This document shows, one piece after another, positions 44,763 to 54,336 of a stretch of DNA of 64,000 nucleotides. The first letter of the stretch is position 1. Each line of letters begins with the position of its first letter. The stretch is taken from contig CAXXMU010000006.1 in assembly GCA_963667785.2 (NCBI GenBank), positions 992,001 to 1,056,000 of the forward strand, given 5' to 3'. The stretch is from Alphaproteobacteria bacterium (GTDB lineage Bacteria > Pseudomonadota > Alphaproteobacteria > UBA828). Both the position numbers and the translations under genes were made by a program. Below the pieces are notes generated by a model. It was given only the letters and a program-made list of their open reading frames with translations. It had not been told where the DNA came from and searched no databases.

Positions 44763-45557
44763 CTAGTTCGAGCGCGAGCTGGCGCGGGGCCGGACCGGCA
44801 CGCCCTCCAGGAGGCCGTGGCGGTCCATGTCCAGCCAGGCATCCATGAAGACCTCGTTCCACTGCTCGGTCATGGGGTGGTGCATCATGTCACGGTAGAC
44901 CGTCCACATGGTCACGAGCTCGTCTGCTCCGTCGCGGAGGGCGGCGTACGCGGTCTCCACCGTGCGGACGAGGGCGGCCATGATGAAGGGACGCTGCTCC
45001 CAGCGGCCGAACACCTGGGCGCACTCCCGGATCAGCTTGGTCGGGTCGCCGCCCGCTTCCTTGACCGGCTCGCAGAAGGGCAGGATGTGATCGACACCCG
45101 CCTGGGCGACGGCCACGGCCTGCGGCAGGGAGAAGACGGTGGTGCAGCAGGTCTCCACGCCCTCTTCCCGGAGCGCGGCGAAGGCCTTCAGTGCGGTCGT
45201 CGAGCACGGGATCTTCAGGACGACCTGGTCGGAGAGATCCGTGAACGCCTTTCCGACCTCGAGGAGCTCCTCGAGCGAGTGCCCGTCGATCTCGACGACG
45301 ATGGGCTTGTCGGTGAGGTCCAGGTACTTCTTGATCACGTCGATGGCACCGCCATGGGCCTTCGCGTACTGATTGTGCACCACCGTGTTCGTGACGATCC
45401 CGGCGATGCCGAGGGGCATCCATTCCCTGAGGTCATCGGGATCGCCGGCGAGCCAGATGGCGGGGCCGCGGCCCTGGTGGAGGGCGGCGGGGACCGGGCC
45501 GGTGCCGGCCTCCTCGCCGATCGATAGAGCAAGGGGGACGGCGCGTGCAGTCCTCAT
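44763..45557 (-). CDS. Divergent transaldolase/FSA-family protein
   Basis: GIVTN, VVLKIP (Schiff-base Lys), TVFSLPQA; several canonical residues altered. Confidence 0.82.
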   Translation of the reverse strand: MRTARAVPLALSIGEEAGTGPVPAALHQGRGPAIWLAGDPDDLREWMPLGIAGIVTNTVVHNQYAKAHGGAIDVIKKYLDLTDKPIVVEIDGHSLEELLEVGKAFTDLSDQVVLKIPCSTTALKAFAALREEGVETCCTTVFSLPQAVAVAQAGVDHILPFCEPVKEAGGDPTKLIRECAQVFGRWEQRPFIMAALVRTVETAYAALRDGADELVTMWTVYRDMMHHPMTEQWNEVFMDAWLDMDRHGLLEGVPVRPRASSRSN

Positions 45558-45631
45558 GATCGGTTCCTCCCGGTCCGTTGCGACGCCATCACGGTGAACT
45601 GGCTCGGTTCAACCGGCCAACCCGCGTCGGA

Positions 45632-47119
45632 TTACGAAGCCCGCGCGTTGGGCACCGCCTTCGCGATCCTGTCAATACCCTCAGGTATCAGCGATCCTGC
45701 GATCACCGAGTAGCCCAGGCGAATGTGATTCCGGTTGTTTCTCTCGTCGGAGAAGGTGAAGCCGCCCGTCTCGAAGAATACGCCCTCGGCTTCCACCAAC
45801 TGCCGAAGAATGCCGGCATCCGCCTCGTCCGGCAGCCTGAGCCAGATACTGCCTCCGCCATATTCCGACTTCGTGGACGCGCCCGGGAAATGCTGCTCGA
45901 GGGCGTCATGCATGACCGCGCAGCGCTGCTTGTAGATGCCGGTGATCTTCGCGACGAACCGGTCGAAGTACCCGCGTTGAAGGAACAGCGCCACGCTTCT
46001 CTGATTGTTCACAGGGGGGTGCCGAAGAATATGGTGGCGGAGCGCTCTCGCTTCCCGGACGAACTCGCGATCGGCAACCAGGTAGCCGATGCGAAGGCCC
46101 GGCAACAGCGACTTCGACAAACTCCCCGTATAGATGACGTTTCCCCAGCCATCGAGGCTCTTGAGAGCGCGCGGGGGTGTCATGTTGAAGCTGATGTCGG
46201 CCTCGTAATCGTCCTCGATCACGAACTGACCGTTGCTCTTCGTGAGATCGAGCAGTTCCATTTTTCGGTCGAGGGGCATGGTGACGGTTGTCGGAAACTG
46301 ATGGCTGGGTGTCACGAAGAGGCACTTGCAACCGCCGACATCGCTGGAGAGAACCAGTCCCTTCCTGTCGACAGGCAGGCGCCTCACCGCAATACCCTCG
46401 ATCTCGGCCATGTTGATGACGTCGGGATAGCCTGGGTCCTCGACGCCGATCGTCTCGCCCGGCGACAGCAGGAGCTTGATGGCGATGTAGAGCGCCTGCT
46501 GGCCGCCGACCGTGACCAGGACCTCGTCGGGATGGGCGACGATGCCGCGCTTGGCGAGCACGCGCTGGATCAGCTGCTCGATCAGCATGTCGTCGTCGAT
46601 CGCGGAATAGTCGGTGGCCCAATTGGCGAGTTCGATGACGTTGACGGAATCGCGCACGCACTCGCGCCAGCTCGTAATGGGGAAGAGTGACGGGTCGGTC
46701 AGGCCGCAGACGAACGGGTAGCGATACCTGACCAGGACGTCCGAAGGCTTCACGACGCGCTGAAGGTTGAAGCTCCGCCCGGCGAAGAACGCCCGGTAGT
46801 CCAGCCGGCCCGGCGGTCGTGCATTCCCGGCCGGTGCGTCCGGCTTCAGCGCGTGGCCCGGGTCCGTCAGCACGTCGGGGTTCACGTAGAAGCCGGAGCG
46901 GTTCCGGGACTCCACGAAGCCGTCCTGCTTAAGCGCGTCATAGGCCAGCGTGACGGTCGTCACGCTGACTCCCAGCTCCGTCGACAGTTGCCGGATCGAC
47001 GGCAACGGCCGATGCAGGGGGTACTGACGATTGACGATGCCCATCGCGATCTGGCGCCGAATCTGCTTCTGCAGGCTCTCCGGCGCCTCGCGATCGATCA
47101 CGATCATGTTCTCGTACAT
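45632..47119 (-). CDS. MocR/GabR-family PLP-dependent regulator (TauR-like)
   Basis: GntR HTH (LPSIRQLS...TV), EDPGY, TPSHQFPT, IEDDY, SLSKSL. Confidence 0.93.
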   Translation of the reverse strand: MYENMIVIDREAPESLQKQIRRQIAMGIVNRQYPLHRPLPSIRQLSTELGVSVTTVTLAYDALKQDGFVESRNRSGFYVNPDVLTDPGHALKPDAPAGNARPPGRLDYRAFFAGRSFNLQRVVKPSDVLVRYRYPFVCGLTDPSLFPITSWRECVRDSVNVIELANWATDYSAIDDDMLIEQLIQRVLAKRGIVAHPDEVLVTVGGQQALYIAIKLLLSPGETIGVEDPGYPDVINMAEIEGIAVRRLPVDRKGLVLSSDVGGCKCLFVTPSHQFPTTVTMPLDRKMELLDLTKSNGQFVIEDDYEADISFNMTPPRALKSLDGWGNVIYTGSLSKSLLPGLRIGYLVADREFVREARALRHHILRHPPVNNQRSVALFLQRGYFDRFVAKITGIYKQRCAVMHDALEQHFPGASTKSEYGGGSIWLRLPDEADAGILRQLVEAEGVFFETGGFTFSDERNNRNHIRLGYSVIAGSLIPEGIDRIAKAVPNARAS

Positions 47120-47225
47120 CGTCGTCAGGCCCCTCGCCCCATGGAGCGACAGCCGCGGGAGTCAGGGGTAGCGCACGCCCAGCGGCGCCATCAAGCACTC
47201 TCAGCCTCTGCACCCAAAACCTTTC

Positions 47226-47253
47226 CTGTCTGTATGTAGGGACTCATCTGTCC
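47226..47253. promoter_or_regulatory. Candidate MocR operator
   Basis: CTGTCT and CTGTCC 22 bp apart with an inverted GGGAC between them, in the divergent intergenic region. Confidence 0.35.
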
Positions 47254-47342
47254 GAGCGGTAGGTTGATCCCGCGATGGCTTAGAAAATAAGCGCGCACGG
47301 GAGGGATTTTACCGGTGGATCAAGTGGCGGTGTCGGGAAGCA

Positions 47343-49004
47343 ATGCAGCTGCGTAGCGACAAACAATATCTGGGAATCGAGCGCTCTCTGCAGCGTGCAT
47401 GGGCGAAAGGAGCCGGGCTGATCGACGAAGAGTTCGAGCAGCCCATGATCGCGGTCGTCAACACGTATCAGGAGTTCTCACCGGAGAACGTCCACCTCCG
47501 TCAGGTCGCCGACGCCGTCAAGGCGGGCATTCGCATGGCGGGCGGAACACCCTGCGAATTCAACACCTTCCACGTCACTGACAGCGAGACCTTTGCCTCA
47601 GTCGGCATGCGCTACGTGCTGCCGAGCAGAGACCTCGTGGCCGACATGATCGAGCTCATGGTCGAAGGCCACCGCTTCGATGCGATGGTGCTGATCGGCT
47701 CGGGCGACAAGGTTATGCCTGGAATGGTAATGGCCGCAACACGCCTGGATATACCCGCCATCGTTCTGTACGGCGGACCGACCAAGGCCGGACTCTACAA
47801 GAACCGTAAGGTATTTCTGGAGACGGTCTACGACGGCGTCGGCGAGCATCTTCTCGGGAGGATTACCGAGGAAGAACTCAAGGGTCTCGAGGATAACCAC
47901 TTCCCGTTTTCGGGCGCTTGTGACACCGCAACATCAGGCAATACTGCCGGCATCTACACGGAAGCTCTGGGACTTTCCCTGCCCCATTCCGGCACCTTTC
48001 CTGCGGGAAGCAACTACCAGCTGCGCGCGGCGAAATACACCGGGATGAGGATCATGGAGTTGCTGAAAGAAGACCTGCGCCCGTCGGAAATCCTGTCGCA
48101 GGAGGCTTTCGAGAACGCCATGCGCGTGGGGCTGGCGGTCGGCGGCTCCACCAACATGGTCCTTCACATGATCGCGATGGCGATCGAGGCCGGCGTCGAA
48201 ATCAGCTTCGACACCTGGGACCGGCTCAGCCGGGAGACTCCGACCCTGGTCAAGCTCGCGCCGTCGGGACCCTGGGGCGTAACGGAGCTCGGCGAAGCGG
48301 GCGGCACGCCCGCGGTCATGAAGGCGCTGGGCGATCTCATTCACCCGGACACGCGGACGGTGAGCGGCGAGACGACCGGGGAGCTGATCGCCCAGGCGGA
48401 AATCGAGAACCCCGCGTGCATCCGAAGCAGGAGCGATCCCGTCGAGCCGGAGGGCTCCATCTACATCCTCAAGGGCACTCTCGCCCCCGGCGGTGCGGTG
48501 GTGAAGGCCTCCGGTGTCGCTCGCGACATGTGGGAAGCCGTGCTGCCGGCACGCGTCTTCGAGGACGAAGAGGGCGCGATCGACGCACTCCGCGACAACG
48601 AAATCTCGCCCGGCACCTGCGTCGTGATCCGGAACGAGGGAACGCGGGGCGGCCCCGGCATGCGCGAGATGCTGGGTGCCACCTCGGCGTTGATGGGGGC
48701 GGGTCTCGGCAACAGCTGCGCGCTCGTCACGGACGGGCGCTTCTCGGGCGCGACGCACGGCCCCGCCATCGGATACGTCACGCCCGAGGCCGCGCGGGAG
48801 GGGCCCATCGCCCTCGTCGAGGACGGCGATCCGATCTGCATCGACCTGGCGGGCCGCACGCTCGACTTGCGGGTGGACCCGGAGGTGCTCGCGCAGCGCC
48901 GCCGCAATCACACGCCGAGGCCGGTTCCGGTCTCGCGCGGCTATCTCAAGCACTACGCCGAGCACGTGGCGCCGGCGTCCGAAGGGGCGGTGATGCCGCG
49001 CTAG
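47343..49004 (+). CDS. IlvD/Edd-family dehydratase homologue with atypical metal ligands
   Basis: [27 protein letters not shown]; PEN and GDK replace PCN and CDK. Confidence 0.9.
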
Positions 49005-49007
49005 GCC

Positions 49008-50054
49008 ATGAACGCAGCAGGGAAGACCGTCGTCGTCACCAATGCCGCCTCCACCGGTATCAGGATCGAGCGCGCCGAGTTAAAGGCGCTCGCGCGCCGC
49101 AGCGACCGGCCCGGCCTGGCCTATCTCGGCGCCTGGACGTTTCTGCTGGCAGCGACCGGGGCGCTCGTCTGGCTCGCCCTGGGCAGCGCGTACGTCTGGG
49201 CGGCGATGTTCGCATACGGCGTCGTCATGTCGGTGCCGTCCTACGCGCTCAGCCACGAAACGGCGCACGGAACCGCCTTCCGCACACGCCGGCTCAACGA
49301 GGCCGTCTTCTGGTTCACGTCGCTGCTCTACGGCGAGGAGCCGCTGCACCGGCGCTACACCCACACGAACCATCACACCCACACCTGGTACGTCGGCCAC
49401 GACAGCCAGATGCCTTTCGACACGCCGCTCGACTTCAAGGGCTGGCTCTACGACATCAGCGGGCTGTCGATCCACAGGTTCCAGCTCCGGGTGCTCTGGC
49501 AGCTCGCGACCAGGCGATACACGCCGCTGATGCGGGAGGTGTCGCCGGCGTCAGAGCTGCCGAAGATGACCCGCAACGCGCGCCTCTTCTGCCTCATCTA
49601 CCTCGGCGTCGTCGCCCTGATCGCGTCCGGCTACGGCTGGCCGCTGCTCTGGTTCTACGTGCTGCCGCGACTCATCGGCGGTCCGATCATGCTGATGTTC
49701 AACATCATCCAGCACGCCGAGATGCAGGAGAACTCGCCCTCGATCGTGGACAGCACGCGGACGTTCCGGACGAACTGGGTGGGGCGCTTCCTCTATCTCA
49801 ACATGAACAACCACGTGGAGCACCACCTCTATCCGCAGGTGCCGTTCTACGCGCTCCCCCGGCTTCACGAGGCGGTCGCCCGGCAGACGCCGGAGCCGGA
49901 TCCGGGCTTCTGGCCCACCAATATCGATCTTCTCTGGGTCGTCGTCCGGCGCTCGCTCGGGCGCGGCACCAAGGCTGCATGGATCCGCCAGGCGCCGCAC
50001 ATGGTCAGCGCCGGCGGCACCCACACGAAGATCTCGAAGGCCACGATGCAGTGA
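49008..50054 (+). CDS. Membrane di-iron oxygenase, desaturase family (MocD-like)
   Basis: His boxes HETAH, HTNHH, QH, HVEHH. Confidence 0.9.
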   Translation: MNAAGKTVVVTNAASTGIRIERAELKALARRSDRPGLAYLGAWTFLLAATGALVWLALGSAYVWAAMFAYGVVMSVPSYALSHETAHGTAFRTRRLNEAVFWFTSLLYGEEPLHRRYTHTNHHTHTWYVGHDSQMPFDTPLDFKGWLYDISGLSIHRFQLRVLWQLATRRYTPLMREVSPASELPKMTRNARLFCLIYLGVVALIASGYGWPLLWFYVLPRLIGGPIMLMFNIIQHAEMQENSPSIVDSTRTFRTNWVGRFLYLNMNNHVEHHLYPQVPFYALPRLHEAVARQTPEPDPGFWPTNIDLLWVVVRRSLGRGTKAAWIRQAPHMVSAGGTHTKISKATMQ

Positions 50055-50893
50055 CGCGCACGCGCATCTACACCTACGGCGGCAAGCCGGCCCGGCGCAA
50101 CTTCACCGTGGCCGACATGATCGCGCACAAGGGCACGGCCAGGCTCTGCCAGACCTGCCCGGCGACGGAGGAGGAAGCCGCAGCCTGCGAGGCGGTGGGC
50201 ATCGACGTGCTGAACACGTCGGATGCGGACCTTCCCGCGGTGCGGGCCGGTGCGCCGGAGACCTTCACCATCGCCGATCTGCCGATGACGGCGCACCGGA
50301 CGCCGGACGATATCCTGCGTGCCGCCGTGAAGGCGGCGGAAATCGGTGCCGACGCGGTCTACACGCCGCGCAGCCTGCACATGGTCGAGATGCTGGCCAG
50401 GGAGGGGCTCGCTGTTCAGGGCCATCTCGGCCTGGTGCCGAGGCTTTCCACACGGCGGGGCGGCTTGCGGATCGTCGGCAAGACGGCAGACGAGGCCGTC
50501 GAGCTGGCGGAGGATTTTCGCCGGCTCGAGGACGCTGGCGCCTATGCCGCCGAAGTGGAATGCGTCGCGGCCGAGGCGCTCGCGGCGATCAACCCGCTGA
50601 CGACGCTGGTCACGCATTCCATCGGCGCCGGCTCCGCAGGCGACGTCATCTTCATGTTCCTGGTGGACATCTGCGGGGAGTCCGATCGCCCCCCGGGGCA
50701 CGCCAAGGCGTTCGCTGACCTGAGTTCGATCCGCGCGCATCTCGCGGTCGAGCGGCGGCGCGCCCTGAGCGACTACCGGCACGCGGTCATGAACGGCTCC
50801 TATCCCGACGCCACGACCTCGGTCTCGATGCTGCCGGACGAGCACGAGAGGCTCCTCGAGGCGCTGGATGCGCGCCGGATCTTTCACTCCTAG
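50051..50893 (+). CDS. Divergent ketopantoate hydroxymethyltransferase (PanB)-like protein
   Basis: ADLP, GHLGLVP, EVECV, SIGAG; GTGA overlap with the upstream gene. Confidence 0.82.
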   Translation: MTRTRIYTYGGKPARRNFTVADMIAHKGTARLCQTCPATEEEAAACEAVGIDVLNTSDADLPAVRAGAPETFTIADLPMTAHRTPDDILRAAVKAAEIGADAVYTPRSLHMVEMLAREGLAVQGHLGLVPRLSTRRGGLRIVGKTADEAVELAEDFRRLEDAGAYAAEVECVAAEALAAINPLTTLVTHSIGAGSAGDVIFMFLVDICGESDRPPGHAKAFADLSSIRAHLAVERRRALSDYRHAVMNGSYPDATTSVSMLPDEHERLLEALDARRIFHS

Positions 50894-50903
50894 GGGAACG
50901 ACC

Positions 50904-51212
50904 ATGGCCGACTGGGTCCGCGCCTGCGCCTGCGACGACATCGAGGAAGAGGACCTCATCCGCTGGGACCACGGAGGCCGCACCTACGCGATCTACAGAG
51001 CCGAGGACGGCTTCTACTGCACCGACGGCATGTGCACGCACGAGGAAGAGCACCTCGAGGAGGGGCTTCTGACCGGCCATGTCATCGAGTGCCCCCTTCA
51101 CCAGGGCCGCTTCGACATCCGGACGGGAGAGGTGATCTCGCCGCCGCCCTTCGTCGACCTCAACACCTATCCGGTGAAGACGGAGGGCGGACAGGTCTAC
51201 GTGAAGGTTTAG
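50904..51212 (+). CDS. Rieske ferredoxin (MocE-like)
   Basis: CTH...CPLH. Confidence 0.93.
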   Translation: MADWVRACACDDIEEEDLIRWDHGGRTYAIYRAEDGFYCTDGMCTHEEEHLEEGLLTGHVIECPLHQGRFDIRTGEVISPPPFVDLNTYPVKTEGGQVYVKV

Positions 51213-51280
51213 TGCCCCTGGACCGCAAAAACTCCCGGGGAATGCGCCGACAACCGATGCAACGAAGAGGAGATGGAACC

Positions 51281-52309
51281 ATGCAGAACCCAATTCGCAA
51301 ACTGCTGCTGCCCGGCCTGACCGCGGCAGGAATCGCGCTCGGCGCGATGGCTTACCAGGCCGACACGCAGAAAGCCGAGGCGGCGGAGAGCTTCATCTTC
51401 GCCCATGCGATGAACGTCGATCACGTGTTCCACGCCATCTCGGAACGCTACATCGGCGACCTGGCCGACCAGAGCGGCCTCGAGATCGAGTATCACCCGG
51501 GCGGCGATCTCGGGGACTGGACGTCGCTGTTCGAGCAGGCCATGCAGGGCGTGGTTCCGATGACGCTCACCTGGGCCTCGTCCGAATTCGATTCGCGGCT
51601 CGACCTCATCTATCTGGGCTACATCGTCTCCAACTGGGAAGACGCGGAACGTCTCTACGGCCCCGGCGCCGGCATGCTCGACGTTTACAACGACATGCTG
51701 GCCGATCTCGGTCTCCATGCCCTCGGCATCATCCCGACCGACTTCGGCTCGGTGGTGATCCGGAAGGGCGTGGGCGAGCTTCCGATGAACTTCCCCGCCG
51801 ATCCTAACGGCATGAAGATCCGTGTGCCGGGACTGGCGATCGCCGTGGACCGCTTCAACAACTTCGGCTTCGCCGCCGTGCCGATCCCGCTCTCGGAGGT
51901 GCACACGGCCCTTCAGCTCGGGACCGTGGATGCGCGGTCGTTCTCCACCGCAGTCGAGACCTACACGCTGCGCGACGTCCTTGAGGCCAACATTCTTACG
52001 AACGACTACTTCGAGGTCGCCTTCTGGCTCGTCAACAAGGAGTGGTGGGACGGCCTCCCCGAAGACTCCCGCAACGCCCTGCAGGCTGCAGCCGACAACA
52101 CTATCGGCTGGTCGTGGAAGGAAGCCAGGAGCAAGAGCGACGAGTTCCTGCAGAAGGCGCGCGATGCAGGCATCAACGTCGTCGAGCTGAGCGACGAGCA
52201 GATGAGCGCCGCCAAGCAGATCGTCTATGAGAAGGAGTGGCCGATGATGGAAGGCGTCGTCGGCAAGGAAATCATGGACAAGATCCGCCAGGTCGTAGGC
52301 GTCGAGTAA
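51281..52309 (+). CDS. dctP: TRAP substrate-binding protein
   Basis: Signal peptide; GMKIRVP, SEVHTALQLGTVD. Confidence 0.92.
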   Translation: MQNPIRKLLLPGLTAAGIALGAMAYQADTQKAEAAESFIFAHAMNVDHVFHAISERYIGDLADQSGLEIEYHPGGDLGDWTSLFEQAMQGVVPMTLTWASSEFDSRLDLIYLGYIVSNWEDAERLYGPGAGMLDVYNDMLADLGLHALGIIPTDFGSVVIRKGVGELPMNFPADPNGMKIRVPGLAIAVDRFNNFGFAAVPIPLSEVHTALQLGTVDARSFSTAVETYTLRDVLEANILTNDYFEVAFWLVNKEWWDGLPEDSRNALQAAADNTIGWSWKEARSKSDEFLQKARDAGINVVELSDEQMSAAKQIVYEKEWPMMEGVVGKEIMDKIRQVVGVE

Positions 52310-52333
52310 GAACGTCACGTCCTCCAGCGACTG

Positions 52334-52359
52334 CGTCCGGGTGCTTCGGCACCCGGACG
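52334..52359 (+). terminator. Perfect hairpin with TTCG loop between dctP and dctQ
   Basis: CGTCCGGGTGC-TTCG-GCACCCGGACG followed by GCTTCTT. Confidence 0.65.
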
Positions 52360-52384
52360 GCTTCTTGATGGAGGACCTGCGACC

Positions 52385-53029
52385 GTGACGGGCAATTCCG
52401 ATCAGCGACCCGGCCCCTCCGAGGTCCCGGAGTCATCGGTCGGCGATACCGAGGGTAGCGAGCGTGAACCGCCCGAGCGACTGACCGCCCTGCCCAAGGG
52501 CCCGCTGGCGGAGAGGTTGCGATGGGTGCTGGCGGCCGAGGCGGTCGTCCAGCGGATTCTCTACGTCTTCATCGTCGCGTTCGGCCTCTGCCTCGCCGGG
52601 CTGATGTTCACCCAGGTGGTGCTGCGATACGCCTTCGCCTCGCCGTTCGTGGGGATCGAGGAGCTATCGCTCCTCTTCGGCGCCTGGTTCTACTTCCTCG
52701 GAATCGCCTACGTCACGCGCGACGGCGAGCACATCCACGGCGGCATCCTGACCATGGTGGTTCGCGGGCCGAACGGCGTGCAGGCCGTTCGCCTGATCGT
52801 CACCGTGCTCGGCATCGCGGCCTGCGCGGTCTTCGGCTACTTCGCGATCAGGTACGCGCTCTTCGAGATCCAGACCGGGCGGCTCAGCTCGTACATGCGC
52901 TGGCCCAAGGGGTTGTGGTCGGCCTCCCTCATCCTCGGCTTCGTCGGCACCACGATCTACATGATCCTTCAGGCAGTCCATCAGTTCCTGGATCTGCAGG
53001 CCCGCCTCCGCGCGCGGTCGCAGAGGTAG
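52385..53029 (+). CDS. dctQ: TRAP small permease
   Basis: 4 TM; QVVLRY, EEL, GEHI. Confidence 0.9.
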   Translation: MTGNSDQRPGPSEVPESSVGDTEGSEREPPERLTALPKGPLAERLRWVLAAEAVVQRILYVFIVAFGLCLAGLMFTQVVLRYAFASPFVGIEELSLLFGAWFYFLGIAYVTRDGEHIHGGILTMVVRGPNGVQAVRLIVTVLGIAACAVFGYFAIRYALFEIQTGRLSSYMRWPKGLWSASLILGFVGTTIYMILQAVHQFLDLQARLRARSQR

Positions 53030-53031
53030 CC

Positions 53032-54336
53032 GTGCTCATCTTTCTCGGCTCCATCGCCCTCATCGTCATCCTGCTACTCTCGGAGATGCCGATTGCGTTC
53101 GCCTTCGGCATCGGCGCGCTGGTGTTCGGCCTTGCGTCGGGCTCGGACATCTCCTTCCTCATCCCCTTCGCCTATCAAACGACCTCGAGCTTCGCCCTGC
53201 TCGCGCTGCCGCTGTTCGTGATGGCCGGCACCATCATGGCCGAAGGCGGGATGTCCGAACGCCTGCTCGCCTTCGTGAATGCGCTGGTCGGCAGGCTCAA
53301 GGGCGGGCTCGGCGCCGTGACCATCGTCACCTGCGCGCTGTTCGGTGCGATCTCCGGCTCGTCGTCCGCGGCCATCGCCGCCATCGGGTCGATCATGATC
53401 CCGCGCATGATCCGGGAGGGATATCCGCCCGGTCATGCCACCGCCCTGGTCGCCTGCTCCTCGGTTCTCGCGCTGATGATCCCGCCCTCCATTCCCATGA
53501 TCGTCTTTGCGGTCACCGGCGGGATATCGGTGGGTGCAGCCTTCCTCTCGACCATCGTTCCCGGCGTCCTGCTGACGGGCGTCTATGTCGGCCTCAACTT
53601 CCTGTTCCTGCGGAAGGTGAAGACCATCACGGTCGAGGAACGGGTTTCCGTGCGGGTCGCGGTCCGCAGAGTCGGCACCACGGGCACCAAGGCCTTCTGG
53701 GCGCTGCTGCTGCCGGTCTTCATCCTGGGAAGCATCTATTCCGGGATCGCCACGCCGACCGAGGCGGCCGCGATCGCCTTCGTCTACACGGTCATCGTGG
53801 GCTTCGTCTTCTATCGCGGGCTGACGCTGCAGAACTTCCCCAAGGCCATCGGGCGCGCGGCGGTGACCACCGGGTCGATCATCGCGGTGCTGTTCTTCCT
53901 GTTCGTCATGAGCCGGGCGATGGTCCTCGAACAGGTGCCGAAGGACGTGGCGGACGCGCTGATCGCGCTGACGGAGAACCGCATCTTCGTGCTTCTGATG
54001 ATCAACCTGATCCTGCTGTTGATCGGCATGATCGTGGACGACGTGTCCGGCAGCGTGCTCGCGGCCATCGTGCTGCTGCCGGTGGCGACGGAGATCGGCG
54101 TCCATCCCATCCACTTCGCCGCGATCGTCGGCACCAATCTCGGGCTCGGGAACGTGTCGCCGCCGTGCGCGCCCATGCTCTACATGGCGGCGGGGATCAG
54201 CAAGCTCTCGCTGGACAAGTATGTGGTGCCGACAATGAAGCTGCTCTGCCTGGGCCATCTGCCCATGGTGCTGATCGTCACCTTCATCCCGGACCTCTCC
54301 CTGGCTCTGCCCAGGCTGGTCATGGGGATCGAGTGA
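53032..54336 (+). CDS. dctM: TRAP large permease
   Basis: ALPLF, ISGSS, IPPSI, TPTEA, SPP. Confidence 0.94.
   Translation: MLIFLGSIALIVILLLSEMPIAFAFGIGALVFGLASGSDISFLIPFAYQTTSSFALLALPLFVMAGTIMAEGGMSERLLAFVNALVGRLKGGLGAVTIVTCALFGAISGSSSAAIAAIGSIMIPRMIREGYPPGHATALVACSSVLALMIPPSIPMIVFAVTGGISVGAAFLSTIVPGVLLTGVYVGLNFLFLRKVKTITVEERVSVRVAVRRVGTTGTKAFWALLLPVFILGSIYSGIATPTEAAAIAFVYTVIVGFVFYRGLTLQNFPKAIGRAAVTTGSIIAVLFFLFVMSRAMVLEQVPKDVADALIALTENRIFVLLMINLILLLIGMIVDDVSGSVLAAIVLLPVATEIGVHPIHFAAIVGTNLGLGNVSPPCAPMLYMAAGISKLSLDKYVVPTMKLLCLGHLPMVLIVTFIPDLSLALPRLVMGIE

Follow-up and report, generated by a model that had tools for sequence, protein, structure and literature searches.

The 64,000-nucleotide stretch of DNA analyzed here (the window) comes from contig CAXXMU010000006.1 of an Alphaproteobacteria bacterium of the UBA828 lineage and harbors a cluster of nine genes, which a preliminary description had proposed as an undescribed catabolic locus combining a MocR regulator, a MocD/MocE-like oxygenase, a tripartite ATP-independent periplasmic (TRAP) transporter and three altered paralogues of housekeeping enzymes. 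Genes were called by listing and translating the open reading frames (ORFs), and the products were scanned with Pfam and NCBIfam; all nine genes of that description were recovered (Table 1). The operon, from the ilvD-like gene to dctM, is divergent from mocR, with an intergenic region of 223 nt between mocR and the ilvD-like gene. Its genes are tightly packed, as had been proposed: 3 nt separate the ilvD-like and hydroxylase genes, the stop codon of the hydroxylase gene overlaps the start of the panB-like gene in the sequence GTGA, a gap of 10 nt lies upstream of the ferredoxin gene, and dctM starts with GTG 3 nt past the dctQ stop. The stem-loop between dctP and dctQ occupies a position where TRAP and ABC operons often restrain transcription or stabilize the binding-protein message.

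Table 1. Genes and other features of the cluster (positions in the window).
Feature	Position	Strand	Evidence
Transaldolase/fructose-6-phosphate aldolase (TAL/FSA)-like gene	44763–45557	-	PF00923, 67 bits
MocR-subfamily regulator (mocR)	45632–47119	-	GntR helix-turn-helix (PF00392) and aminotransferase fold (PF00155)
Candidate MocR operator	47208–47239	.	alignment of 20 intergenic regions
IlvD/Edd-like gene	47343–49004	+	PF00920, PF24877
FA_desaturase-type membrane di-iron hydroxylase	49008–50054	+	PF00487, 123 bits
PanB-like gene	50051–50893	+	PF02548, 102 bits
MocE-family Rieske [2Fe-2S] ferredoxin	50904–51212	+	TIGR02377, PF00355
dctP, TRAP solute-binding protein	51281–52309	+	PF03480, 111 bits
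G+C-rich stem-loop between dctP and dctQ	52334–52359	+	11 pairs, 9 of them G-C; consensus scan only
dctQ, TRAP small membrane subunit	52385–53029	+	PF04290, 78 bits
dctM, TRAP large membrane subunit	53032–54336	+	PF06808, 312 bits

To evaluate the spread of the operon, one genome per species was scanned with the PanB-like protein, and the 80 loci obtained were compared with the proteins of the window by tblastn. The genes for the hydroxylase, the PanB-like protein, the ferredoxin, DctP and DctQ were found in the order of the window in 25 of the 80 loci (L003–L026 and L082). The IlvD-like protein was encoded in all 23 of these loci that were uncut, the other two (L006 and L017) ending at a contig edge before the gene, and DctM was present at an identity of at least 80% in 24 of the 25. 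MocR accompanied the operon in 19 of the 22 loci having upstream sequence; the remaining three (L013, L025 and L082) carried a GntR/FCD regulator nearby instead, and L082 was decayed. The gene order is beyond chance, being shared by 25 other loci that span several classes and phyla. Co-occurrence in other genomes was thus borne out for eight of the nine genes that had been grouped together, the transaldolase-like gene being the one that fell away. The carriers included closed chromosomes titled Alphaproteobacteria, Binatia (L013), gammaproteobacterium (L018) and Arenicellales (L025), together with several records titled Paracoccaceae or Rhodospirillales, and the operon proteins were 61–97% identical to those of the window across carriers, DctQ being more variable.

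The genes of the 80 loci were called, their products clustered, and the conserved families named by Pfam and NCBIfam. The genes outside the operon block were found to differ between carriers; in the window, the flanks hold unrelated genes of housekeeping or other kinds, the left one encoding FtsK, LolA, MatE and a peptidase C26 and the right one an AAT-like protein, a deacetylase and an ABC permease. The cluster has a G+C content of 65.3%, compared with 69.7% for the genome (assembly of 4.09 Mb, 98% complete, 6.6% contamination), and 6.8% of the segments across that genome are equally low, so that the low value is a weak hint of transfer. Taken together, the conserved block, the unconserved flanks and, weakly, the slightly low G+C point to horizontal spread of the operon as a self-contained unit. 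The sequence, or relatives at an identity of at least 90%, was detected in contigs of runs labelled sponge metagenome (X2 and X5), and also in X1; contigs of a sponge metatranscriptome library (X20) covered 29 of 30 bins at 90% identity or above, where carry-over of DNA is possible. The carriers are marine and probably sponge-associated bacteria. Full-text literature searches, whose reach did not extend to supplements such as the regulon tables of PMC5320631, returned no description of the gene set, in line with the earlier proposal of an undescribed pathway. The accessible portion of that MocR regulon survey has no occurrence of the word "desaturase" (PMC5320631), and a study on pinitol (PMC9788770) concerns other enzymes.

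The preliminary description had further held that the three housekeeping paralogues carry altered catalytic motifs, and the residue changes were seen in alignments of the IlvD-like, PanB-like and transaldolase-like proteins. The IlvD-like protein contains both IlvD/Edd domains (PF00920, 356.5 bits; PF24877, 226.9 bits), lies just under the cut-offs for dihydroxy-acid dehydratase (DHAD; NF002068, 643.2 vs 644; TIGR00110, 616.1 vs 618.15) and is ∼40–45% identical to solved DHADs. It was aligned with these structures and with 19 orthologues, giving a set of 20 sequences from which L009, L018 and L022 were omitted for their internal deletions, L026 because the contig ends within it, and L006 and L017 because the gene would lie past the contig end. 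The likeness to the known IlvD/Edd dehydratases, i.e., those of dihydroxy acids, pentonates and 6-phosphogluconate, extends to both domains, the Mg ligands (Asp, Asp-Lys, and Glu) and the catalytic Ser/Thr pair, and both the Mg-ligand motifs and the motif TDGRFSGAT with the catalytic serine were found in 20 of 20 sequences. However, whereas those enzymes carry three cluster cysteines, the first is replaced by glutamate (SPEN) and that of the CDK motif by glycine (GDK) in all 20 orthologous sequences, and the third is retained in 13 and replaced by serine in seven; the protein of the window has two of the three substituted (Glu and Gly). According to PMC5770437, the Mg ligands of the family are an aspartate, a carbamylated lysine and a glutamate, the base is a serine, and both the CDK cysteine and the third cysteine, aligned with Cys200 of CcXyDHT, are termed fully conserved.

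The same genome encodes three other IlvD/Edd copies, all with the second and third cysteines and two also with the first. A search of 1.84 billion representatives revealed, among the 15 best full-length matches that were aligned, three more GDK variants (P0121, P0125, and P0127; 45–61% identical) in which the third cysteine is also absent, which indicates that a small cluster-free IlvD/Edd branch exists. The IlvD-like protein is presumed to be an Fe-S-free, Mg-dependent dehydratase or β-eliminase. The ilvD-like gene is internally deleted in three of the 23 loci, with loss of residues 262–492 in L009 (7846–8870), 90–424 in L018 (8214–8876) and 147–486 in L022 (8257–8883), while all other operon genes are intact. 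Either the step is dispensable and its gene is decaying, or the deletions are errors in the assembly of metagenome-assembled genomes. The dehydration step of the earlier proposal was not supported in view of these three loci and may be accessory.

The PanB-like protein scored 102.3 bits against PF02548 (cut-off, 28.7), with a match confined to residues 63–253, and fell far under the panB equivalog (TIGR00222, 85.8 vs 207.55). With E. coli PanB (1m3u) it shares the PF02548 fold family, the GHLGL histidine and the ECV glutamate, as well as the Asp of DLP, which is retained in the clade of the window. It differs in that its GADAVYTPRS aligns with GANMVKIEGG of PanB, so that VYTPRS replaces VKIEGG, the Lys and Glu of which bind the keto acid and Mg in PanB. 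Across the family, these two positions are occupied by Tyr or Phe in 78 of 81 and by Pro, Leu or Ala in 78 of 81 sequences. PanB's second Mg-binding Asp survives only in the clade of the window. New, family-specific invariants are D101, T105, R107, E168, S190 and H217 (79–81 of 81), while H125, E170, D198 and D206 are held in common with PanB. The same genome encodes a separate, distant PanB, and in a tree rooted on it all 81 PanB-like sequences fell into one clade, with subclades following the gene architectures; more than 100 clusters were found at 76–98% identity, followed by a drop to ∼60%.

Rather than pantothenate genes, the panB-like gene adjoins an oxygenase gene, which lies within 6.5 kb in 78 of the 80 loci. 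The partner may be a desaturase-type hydroxylase (usually with a Rieske ferredoxin), an FA_hydroxylase, a Rieske oxygenase nearest GbcA or a PhyH-type dioxygenase, and one locus (L032) contains three oxygenase genes. Where a desaturase-type gene is directly upstream (42 loci), its stop codon shares 4 nt with the panB-like start in 35 loci and a single nucleotide in two. Other partners vary and include a class II aldolase-family protein, a 3-hydroxyisobutyrate-dehydrogenase-like protein and LysR, GntR or AraC regulators. An M24 protein (family F7; L080, 10825–12141, and homologues; 20 loci) is nearest to the dimethylsulfoniopropionate lyase DddP (283 bits vs 600). In the clusters of tier 2 it is encoded between the panB-like and ferredoxin genes, where tier 1 (the clade of the window) has no gene and carries the ilvD-like gene upstream instead; the tier-2 M24 protein may be a β-eliminase analogous to the IlvD-like protein. 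Judged by tree and neighbourhood, the PanB-like proteins form a family of their own whose partners are oxygenases, and they are presumed to be hydroxymethyl- or one-carbon (C1)-handling enzymes. The earlier suggestion that the PanB paralogue handles C1 or hydroxymethyl groups thereby gained contextual support, from the oxygenase neighbours, which are of five kinds, and from the rhizobial four-gene operon described below, whose remaining genes make up a three-component hydroxylase.

A fourth architecture was also observed (L068, L071–L073, and L076–L079), consisting of a PanB-like protein, a GntR/FCD regulator, DUF6166, a TRAP transporter of its own, a PhyH-type dioxygenase and a short FA_hydroxylase. 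One protein of 388 amino acids (P0104) joins PanB-like and Rieske domains (PF02548 and PF00355), either as a natural fusion or as a read-through call. Close to the tier-3 clusters lie genes for AMP nucleosidase, adenine deaminase and EamA, which were dismissed as ordinary syntenic neighbours.

Relatives of the hydroxylase and of the PanB-like protein were also found on plasmids. A search with the hydroxylase returned 394 plasmid records, among them Rhizobium (144), Ralstonia (109) and Sinorhizobium (85), and one with the PanB-like protein (E value of 1e-25 or better) returned 228, among them Rhizobium (122), Sinorhizobium (71) and Bradyrhizobium (15). All three rhizobial contexts that were opened contain the module. 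In R. leguminosarum WSM1325 (NC_012858.1; L085, 7965–11482) and on pSymB of S. meliloti (CP140937.1; L087, 5951–9792), a LacI regulator is accompanied by genes for a hydroxylase, MocE, an FAD reductase with Reductase_C and a protein annotated as PanB, while Bradyrhizobium p172_1 (L088, 7995–12541) encodes a PanB-like protein, a sterol-desaturase-type hydroxylase, a Rieske protein, a sugar-phosphate isomerase and an FAD reductase. The R. leguminosarum PanB-like protein is 39% identical to that of the window and carries the same GxDAVY signature; the rhizobial proteins annotated as PanB are members of the oxygenase-associated family and not of pantothenate synthesis. The rhizobial operon has the hydroxylase, Rieske ferredoxin and PanB-like module in common with the window but possesses its own reductase and a LacI or AraC regulator, and it is devoid of an IlvD-like gene and of TRAP genes; its PanB-like protein is devoid of both Asp positions kept in the window. 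As the two LacI operons encode nothing that would make a 2-oxo acid, their PanB-like protein must serve the hydroxylase reaction itself. According to PMC5789663, root exudate rich in pinitol induces the mocDEF homologues of a further Rhizobium. The rhizobial operon may be an O-methyl-inositol demethylase system.

The histidine boxes of the hydroxylase (HETAH, HRRYTHTNHH, QH, and HVEHH) are invariant in 13 orthologues, which classes the product as a membrane di-iron hydroxylase of the FA_desaturase/AlkB/MocD type. Its best NCBIfam match was GntB, at just 39 bits, and it is 32–34% identical to the rhizobial hydroxylases adjoining MocE and MocF-type genes, a comparison that did not include the original MocD sequence. 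The ferredoxin exceeds the MocE cut-off (TIGR02377, 140.9 vs 136.15), shows the motifs CTH and CPLH in its translation and is presumed to be the electron donor to the hydroxylase. Complex prediction for the hydroxylase with the PanB-like protein gave a score of 0.00 (mark, 0.32), which speaks neither for nor against binding. A hydroxylase 52% identical to that of the window was observed with a Rieske ferredoxin on a plasmid of Aliisedimentitalea scapharcae (NZ_CP123586.1; L084, 6371–11588), in a cluster with a D-2-hydroxyacid dehydrogenase, a thiamine diphosphate-dependent 2-oxo-acid decarboxylase and an M24 protein and with no PanB-like gene; this cluster resembles a route of the alpha-oxidation type. 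A PanB-like locus (L029) lies elsewhere on that plasmid.

The regulator belongs, by its translated domains, to the MocR subfamily of GntR regulators. Its best NCBIfam match, ∼90 bits above the next MocR types, was PdxR (317.8 vs a cut-off of 320), and it fell under the equivalog cut-offs of the rhizopine MocR (227.9 vs 650), GabR (216.8 vs 600) and EhuR (146.2 vs 480). The lysine of an SLSK motif visible in the translation is presumably the one that holds pyridoxal 5'-phosphate (PLP), as in GabR. Apart from PLP, the ligand of MocR sensors is a primary amine in the cases known, which suggests that the substrate or an intermediate bears an amine. In 20 aligned mocR/ilvD-like intergenic regions, the sole conserved block was a direct repeat with the consensus CTG.A...A.....TTT.....CTGT.T.TAG. 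Its boxes in the window, a degenerate CTGCACCCAA (47208–47217) and CTGTATGTAG (47230–47239), are in direct orientation with starts 22 nt apart, and the conserved TAG (TAGGTT, 47260–47265) follows ∼20 nt downstream. As direct repeats are typical of MocR operators (PMC5320631), this repeat is a candidate MocR operator.

All TRAP subunits are present. DctM exceeded its NCBIfam cut-off (TIGR00786, 337.4 vs 268.45), as did DctP (NF037995, 88.5 vs 50), which has a signal-peptide-like N-terminus. The best solved relatives of DctP, 4ovt, 3gyy, 2vpn and 3fxb, were matched only at E values of ∼1e-19 and are too distant for a ligand to be assigned; the last three are the ectoine binders TeaA/UehA. The Arg of a KIR motif aligns with the Arg of TeaA, so that the carboxylate-binding position is kept. 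MocR-controlled operons for uptake and catabolism of ectoine (EnuR, with TeaABC/UehABC), γ-aminobutyrate (GabR) and taurine (TauR) are covered in PMC5320631. These systems resemble the window in the divergent MocR gene, in an operator made of direct repeats and in the uptake of a small zwitterion-type solute by a TRAP transporter. However, none of their pathway enzymes is encoded in the operon of the window, the EhuR and GabR models are far under cut-off and the likeness of DctP is weak.

The transaldolase-like gene follows mocR in the same orientation after 74 nt, and its product is far under the family cut-off (TIGR00875, 103.5 vs 245.95). It has LPFCEP where transaldolases have SPFVGR, and retains VLKIP, VVEID and the Schiff-base Lys; the Ser and Arg of SPFVGR bind phosphate in transaldolases. 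Orthologues (88–91% identical) were found only in L003, L004, L005 and L007, at three different positions, and no orthologue was found in five other carrier genomes, two of which contain only ordinary relatives of 27–29% identity. By this distribution, the gene is a lineage-specific accessory outside the conserved unit, and the aldol cleavage of the preliminary description was not supported as part of that unit.

From the observed gene content, conservation and residue changes, a reading was drawn up in which every reaction, the C1 acceptor and the effector are proposed. With belief and doubt in about equal measure, we consider the locus to be a horizontally mobile, MocR-controlled catabolic operon, not described before, for a small carboxylate-bearing metabolite that would be degraded by a C1-handling pathway as follows. 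DctPQM would import the carboxylate compound, and the di-iron hydroxylase, drawing electrons from the MocE-type ferredoxin and from a reductase encoded elsewhere, would hydroxylate a methyl group or another C-H bond. The PanB-derived enzyme, made by presumed translational coupling to the hydroxylase, would take over the hydroxymethyl group or nascent formaldehyde; tetrahydrofolate would be the simplest acceptor, half of the PanB reaction possibly having been retained. The Fe-S-free IlvD-like protein would take the α-proton of the resulting 2-hydroxy acid and eliminate a β-substituent (hydroxyl or amine), yielding a 2-oxo acid that could enter central metabolism. MocR, as a PLP-type sensor, would bind the direct repeat in the divergent promoter and probably answer to a primary-amine substrate or intermediate.

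Several observations weigh against this proposal. The tier-1 PanB-like proteins keep both Mg-binding Asp positions of PanB (VGDS and DLP), with Glu and His invariant, which would suit keto-acid chemistry no less than C1 transfer. Homologues of the desaturase type also exist where no PanB-like protein does: Ralstonia, with its many hydroxylase records, has none listed for the PanB-like protein. A glutathione-dependent formaldehyde dehydrogenase above cut-off is encoded in the genome, so that detoxification would not call for a dedicated C1 trap; the conserved neighbours of the 80 loci showed no genes of folate C1 metabolism, and PurU above cut-off was not found in the genome. Neither the dehydrogenase nor the PurU result decides the role of the PanB-like protein. 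The 98%-complete genome, searched for the Reductase_C domain and not for other reductase types, yielded no MocF-type reductase, and the deletions in L009, L018 and L022 argue that the elimination step is not essential everywhere.

The main rival is a cleavage resembling the Dahms route, in which the hydroxylase makes a 2,3-dihydroxy acid, the IlvD-like protein dehydrates it to a 2-oxo-3-deoxy (4-hydroxy-2-oxo) acid, and the PanB-like protein, as a metal-dependent retro-aldolase, releases a smaller 2-oxo acid together with an aldehyde or methylene-tetrahydrofolate. PanB in reverse does split a 4-hydroxy-2-oxo acid, the metal ligands conserved in tier 1 would suit such chemistry, and ilvD-like and panB-like genes share one operon in 23 loci. 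The scheme nevertheless appears unlikely to us, as the PanB-like family occurs mostly without an IlvD-like protein (55 of 80 loci), as it is present in two rhizobial four-gene operons that have no enzyme making a 2-oxo acid, and as an intact panB-like gene persists in the three operons in which ilvD-like is deleted. Moreover, the VKIEGG Lys and Glu positions are replaced throughout the family, and the second Asp is lost outside tier 1. The proximity of the regulator to PdxR raises a different idea, namely that a PdxR-type MocR senses B6 vitamers and that the operon serves to import and process a carboxylated B6 catabolite, for example 4-pyridoxate with its ring methyl and hydroxymethyl groups. 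This is very unlikely: the PdxR cut-off was missed, the operon contains no enzymes of the known pyridoxine degradation route and leaves the IlvD-like step without an obvious role, and there were no B6 genes among the flanking genes scanned.

Grouping of the genes into one pathway could itself be questioned, as lipid desaturases give the Pfam family of the hydroxylase its name, and IlvD and PanB catalyse successive steps in the synthesis of valine and pantothenate; the desaturase-type protein would then modify membrane lipids, or the cluster would be a chance assembly or consist of spare branched-chain amino acid and pantothenate genes. Such an explanation is barely credible given that gene order and coupling persist from phylum to phylum between differing flanks, that a dedicated regulator and transporter are present, and that the genome has other, Cys-bearing IlvD/Edd copies and a separate PanB, while both paralogues are under the equivalog cut-offs and without the defining residues. 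Least credible of all is a moc-type catabolic locus for rhizopine or an O-methyl-inositol. Bahar and colleagues reportedly proposed in 1998 that MocDEF demethylates 3-O-methyl-scyllo-inosamine. A MocR-type regulator, a MocD-type hydroxylase and a ferredoxin over the MocE cut-off do occur together in the window, as they do in the moc locus of S. meliloti L5-30 and R. leguminosarum (mocCABRDEF, described in PMC5789663). However, that locus has mocA, mocB and mocC, the MocF reductase and an ABC transporter, whereas the window has a TRAP transporter, a type which takes organic anions, and the added PanB-like and presumably Fe-S-free IlvD-like proteins. Nothing resembling mocA, mocB or mocC, as had already been noted, and no iol-type genes were found within the cluster or in those flanking genes that were scanned, which makes the earlier conclusion that the substrate is probably not rhizopine a reasonable one; the rhizopine MocR model stayed far from its cut-off, no MocF-type gene was found in the genome, and the identity to the rhizobial hydroxylases is low.

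The C1-handling pathway proposed here follows the logic of 2-aminoisobutyrate catabolism in Rhodococcus, where a methyl group is hydroxylated and the hydroxymethyl group is then removed in a tetrahydrofolate-dependent reaction. There too an oxygenase creates the hydroxymethyl function, which is taken off as C1 by a hydroxymethyltransferase, but the enzyme families are entirely different, being a soluble multicomponent monooxygenase and a PLP enzyme. A bolder version, which we put forward tentatively and regard as somewhat unlikely, is that the PanB-like proteins are a new class of one-carbon enzymes, each produced one-to-one with a membrane or Rieske oxygenase and passing the hydroxymethyl group or nascent formaldehyde of oxidative demethylation to tetrahydrofolate, that they would thus be the folate counterpart of formaldehyde-activating enzymes, that they act beside the first cluster-free, air-stable IlvD/Edd lyase, and that bacteria of multiple phyla, probably sponge-associated, feed in this way on a methylated amine-bearing acid, perhaps derived from the host.

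If the proposal is correct, a widespread family annotated as PanB would be misnamed and would belong to oxidative demethylation or hydroxylation systems, including the rhizobial operon. Similarly, a branch of the IlvD/Edd family would work without the oxygen-sensitive Fe-S cluster thought to be universal, which would bear on the mechanism of these enzymes and would be relevant to biotechnology, where cluster loss limits such dehydratases. The eight-gene island would have moved between Alphaproteobacteria, Gammaproteobacteria and Binatia, and it would mark an unnamed nutrient exchanged in the sponge habitat.

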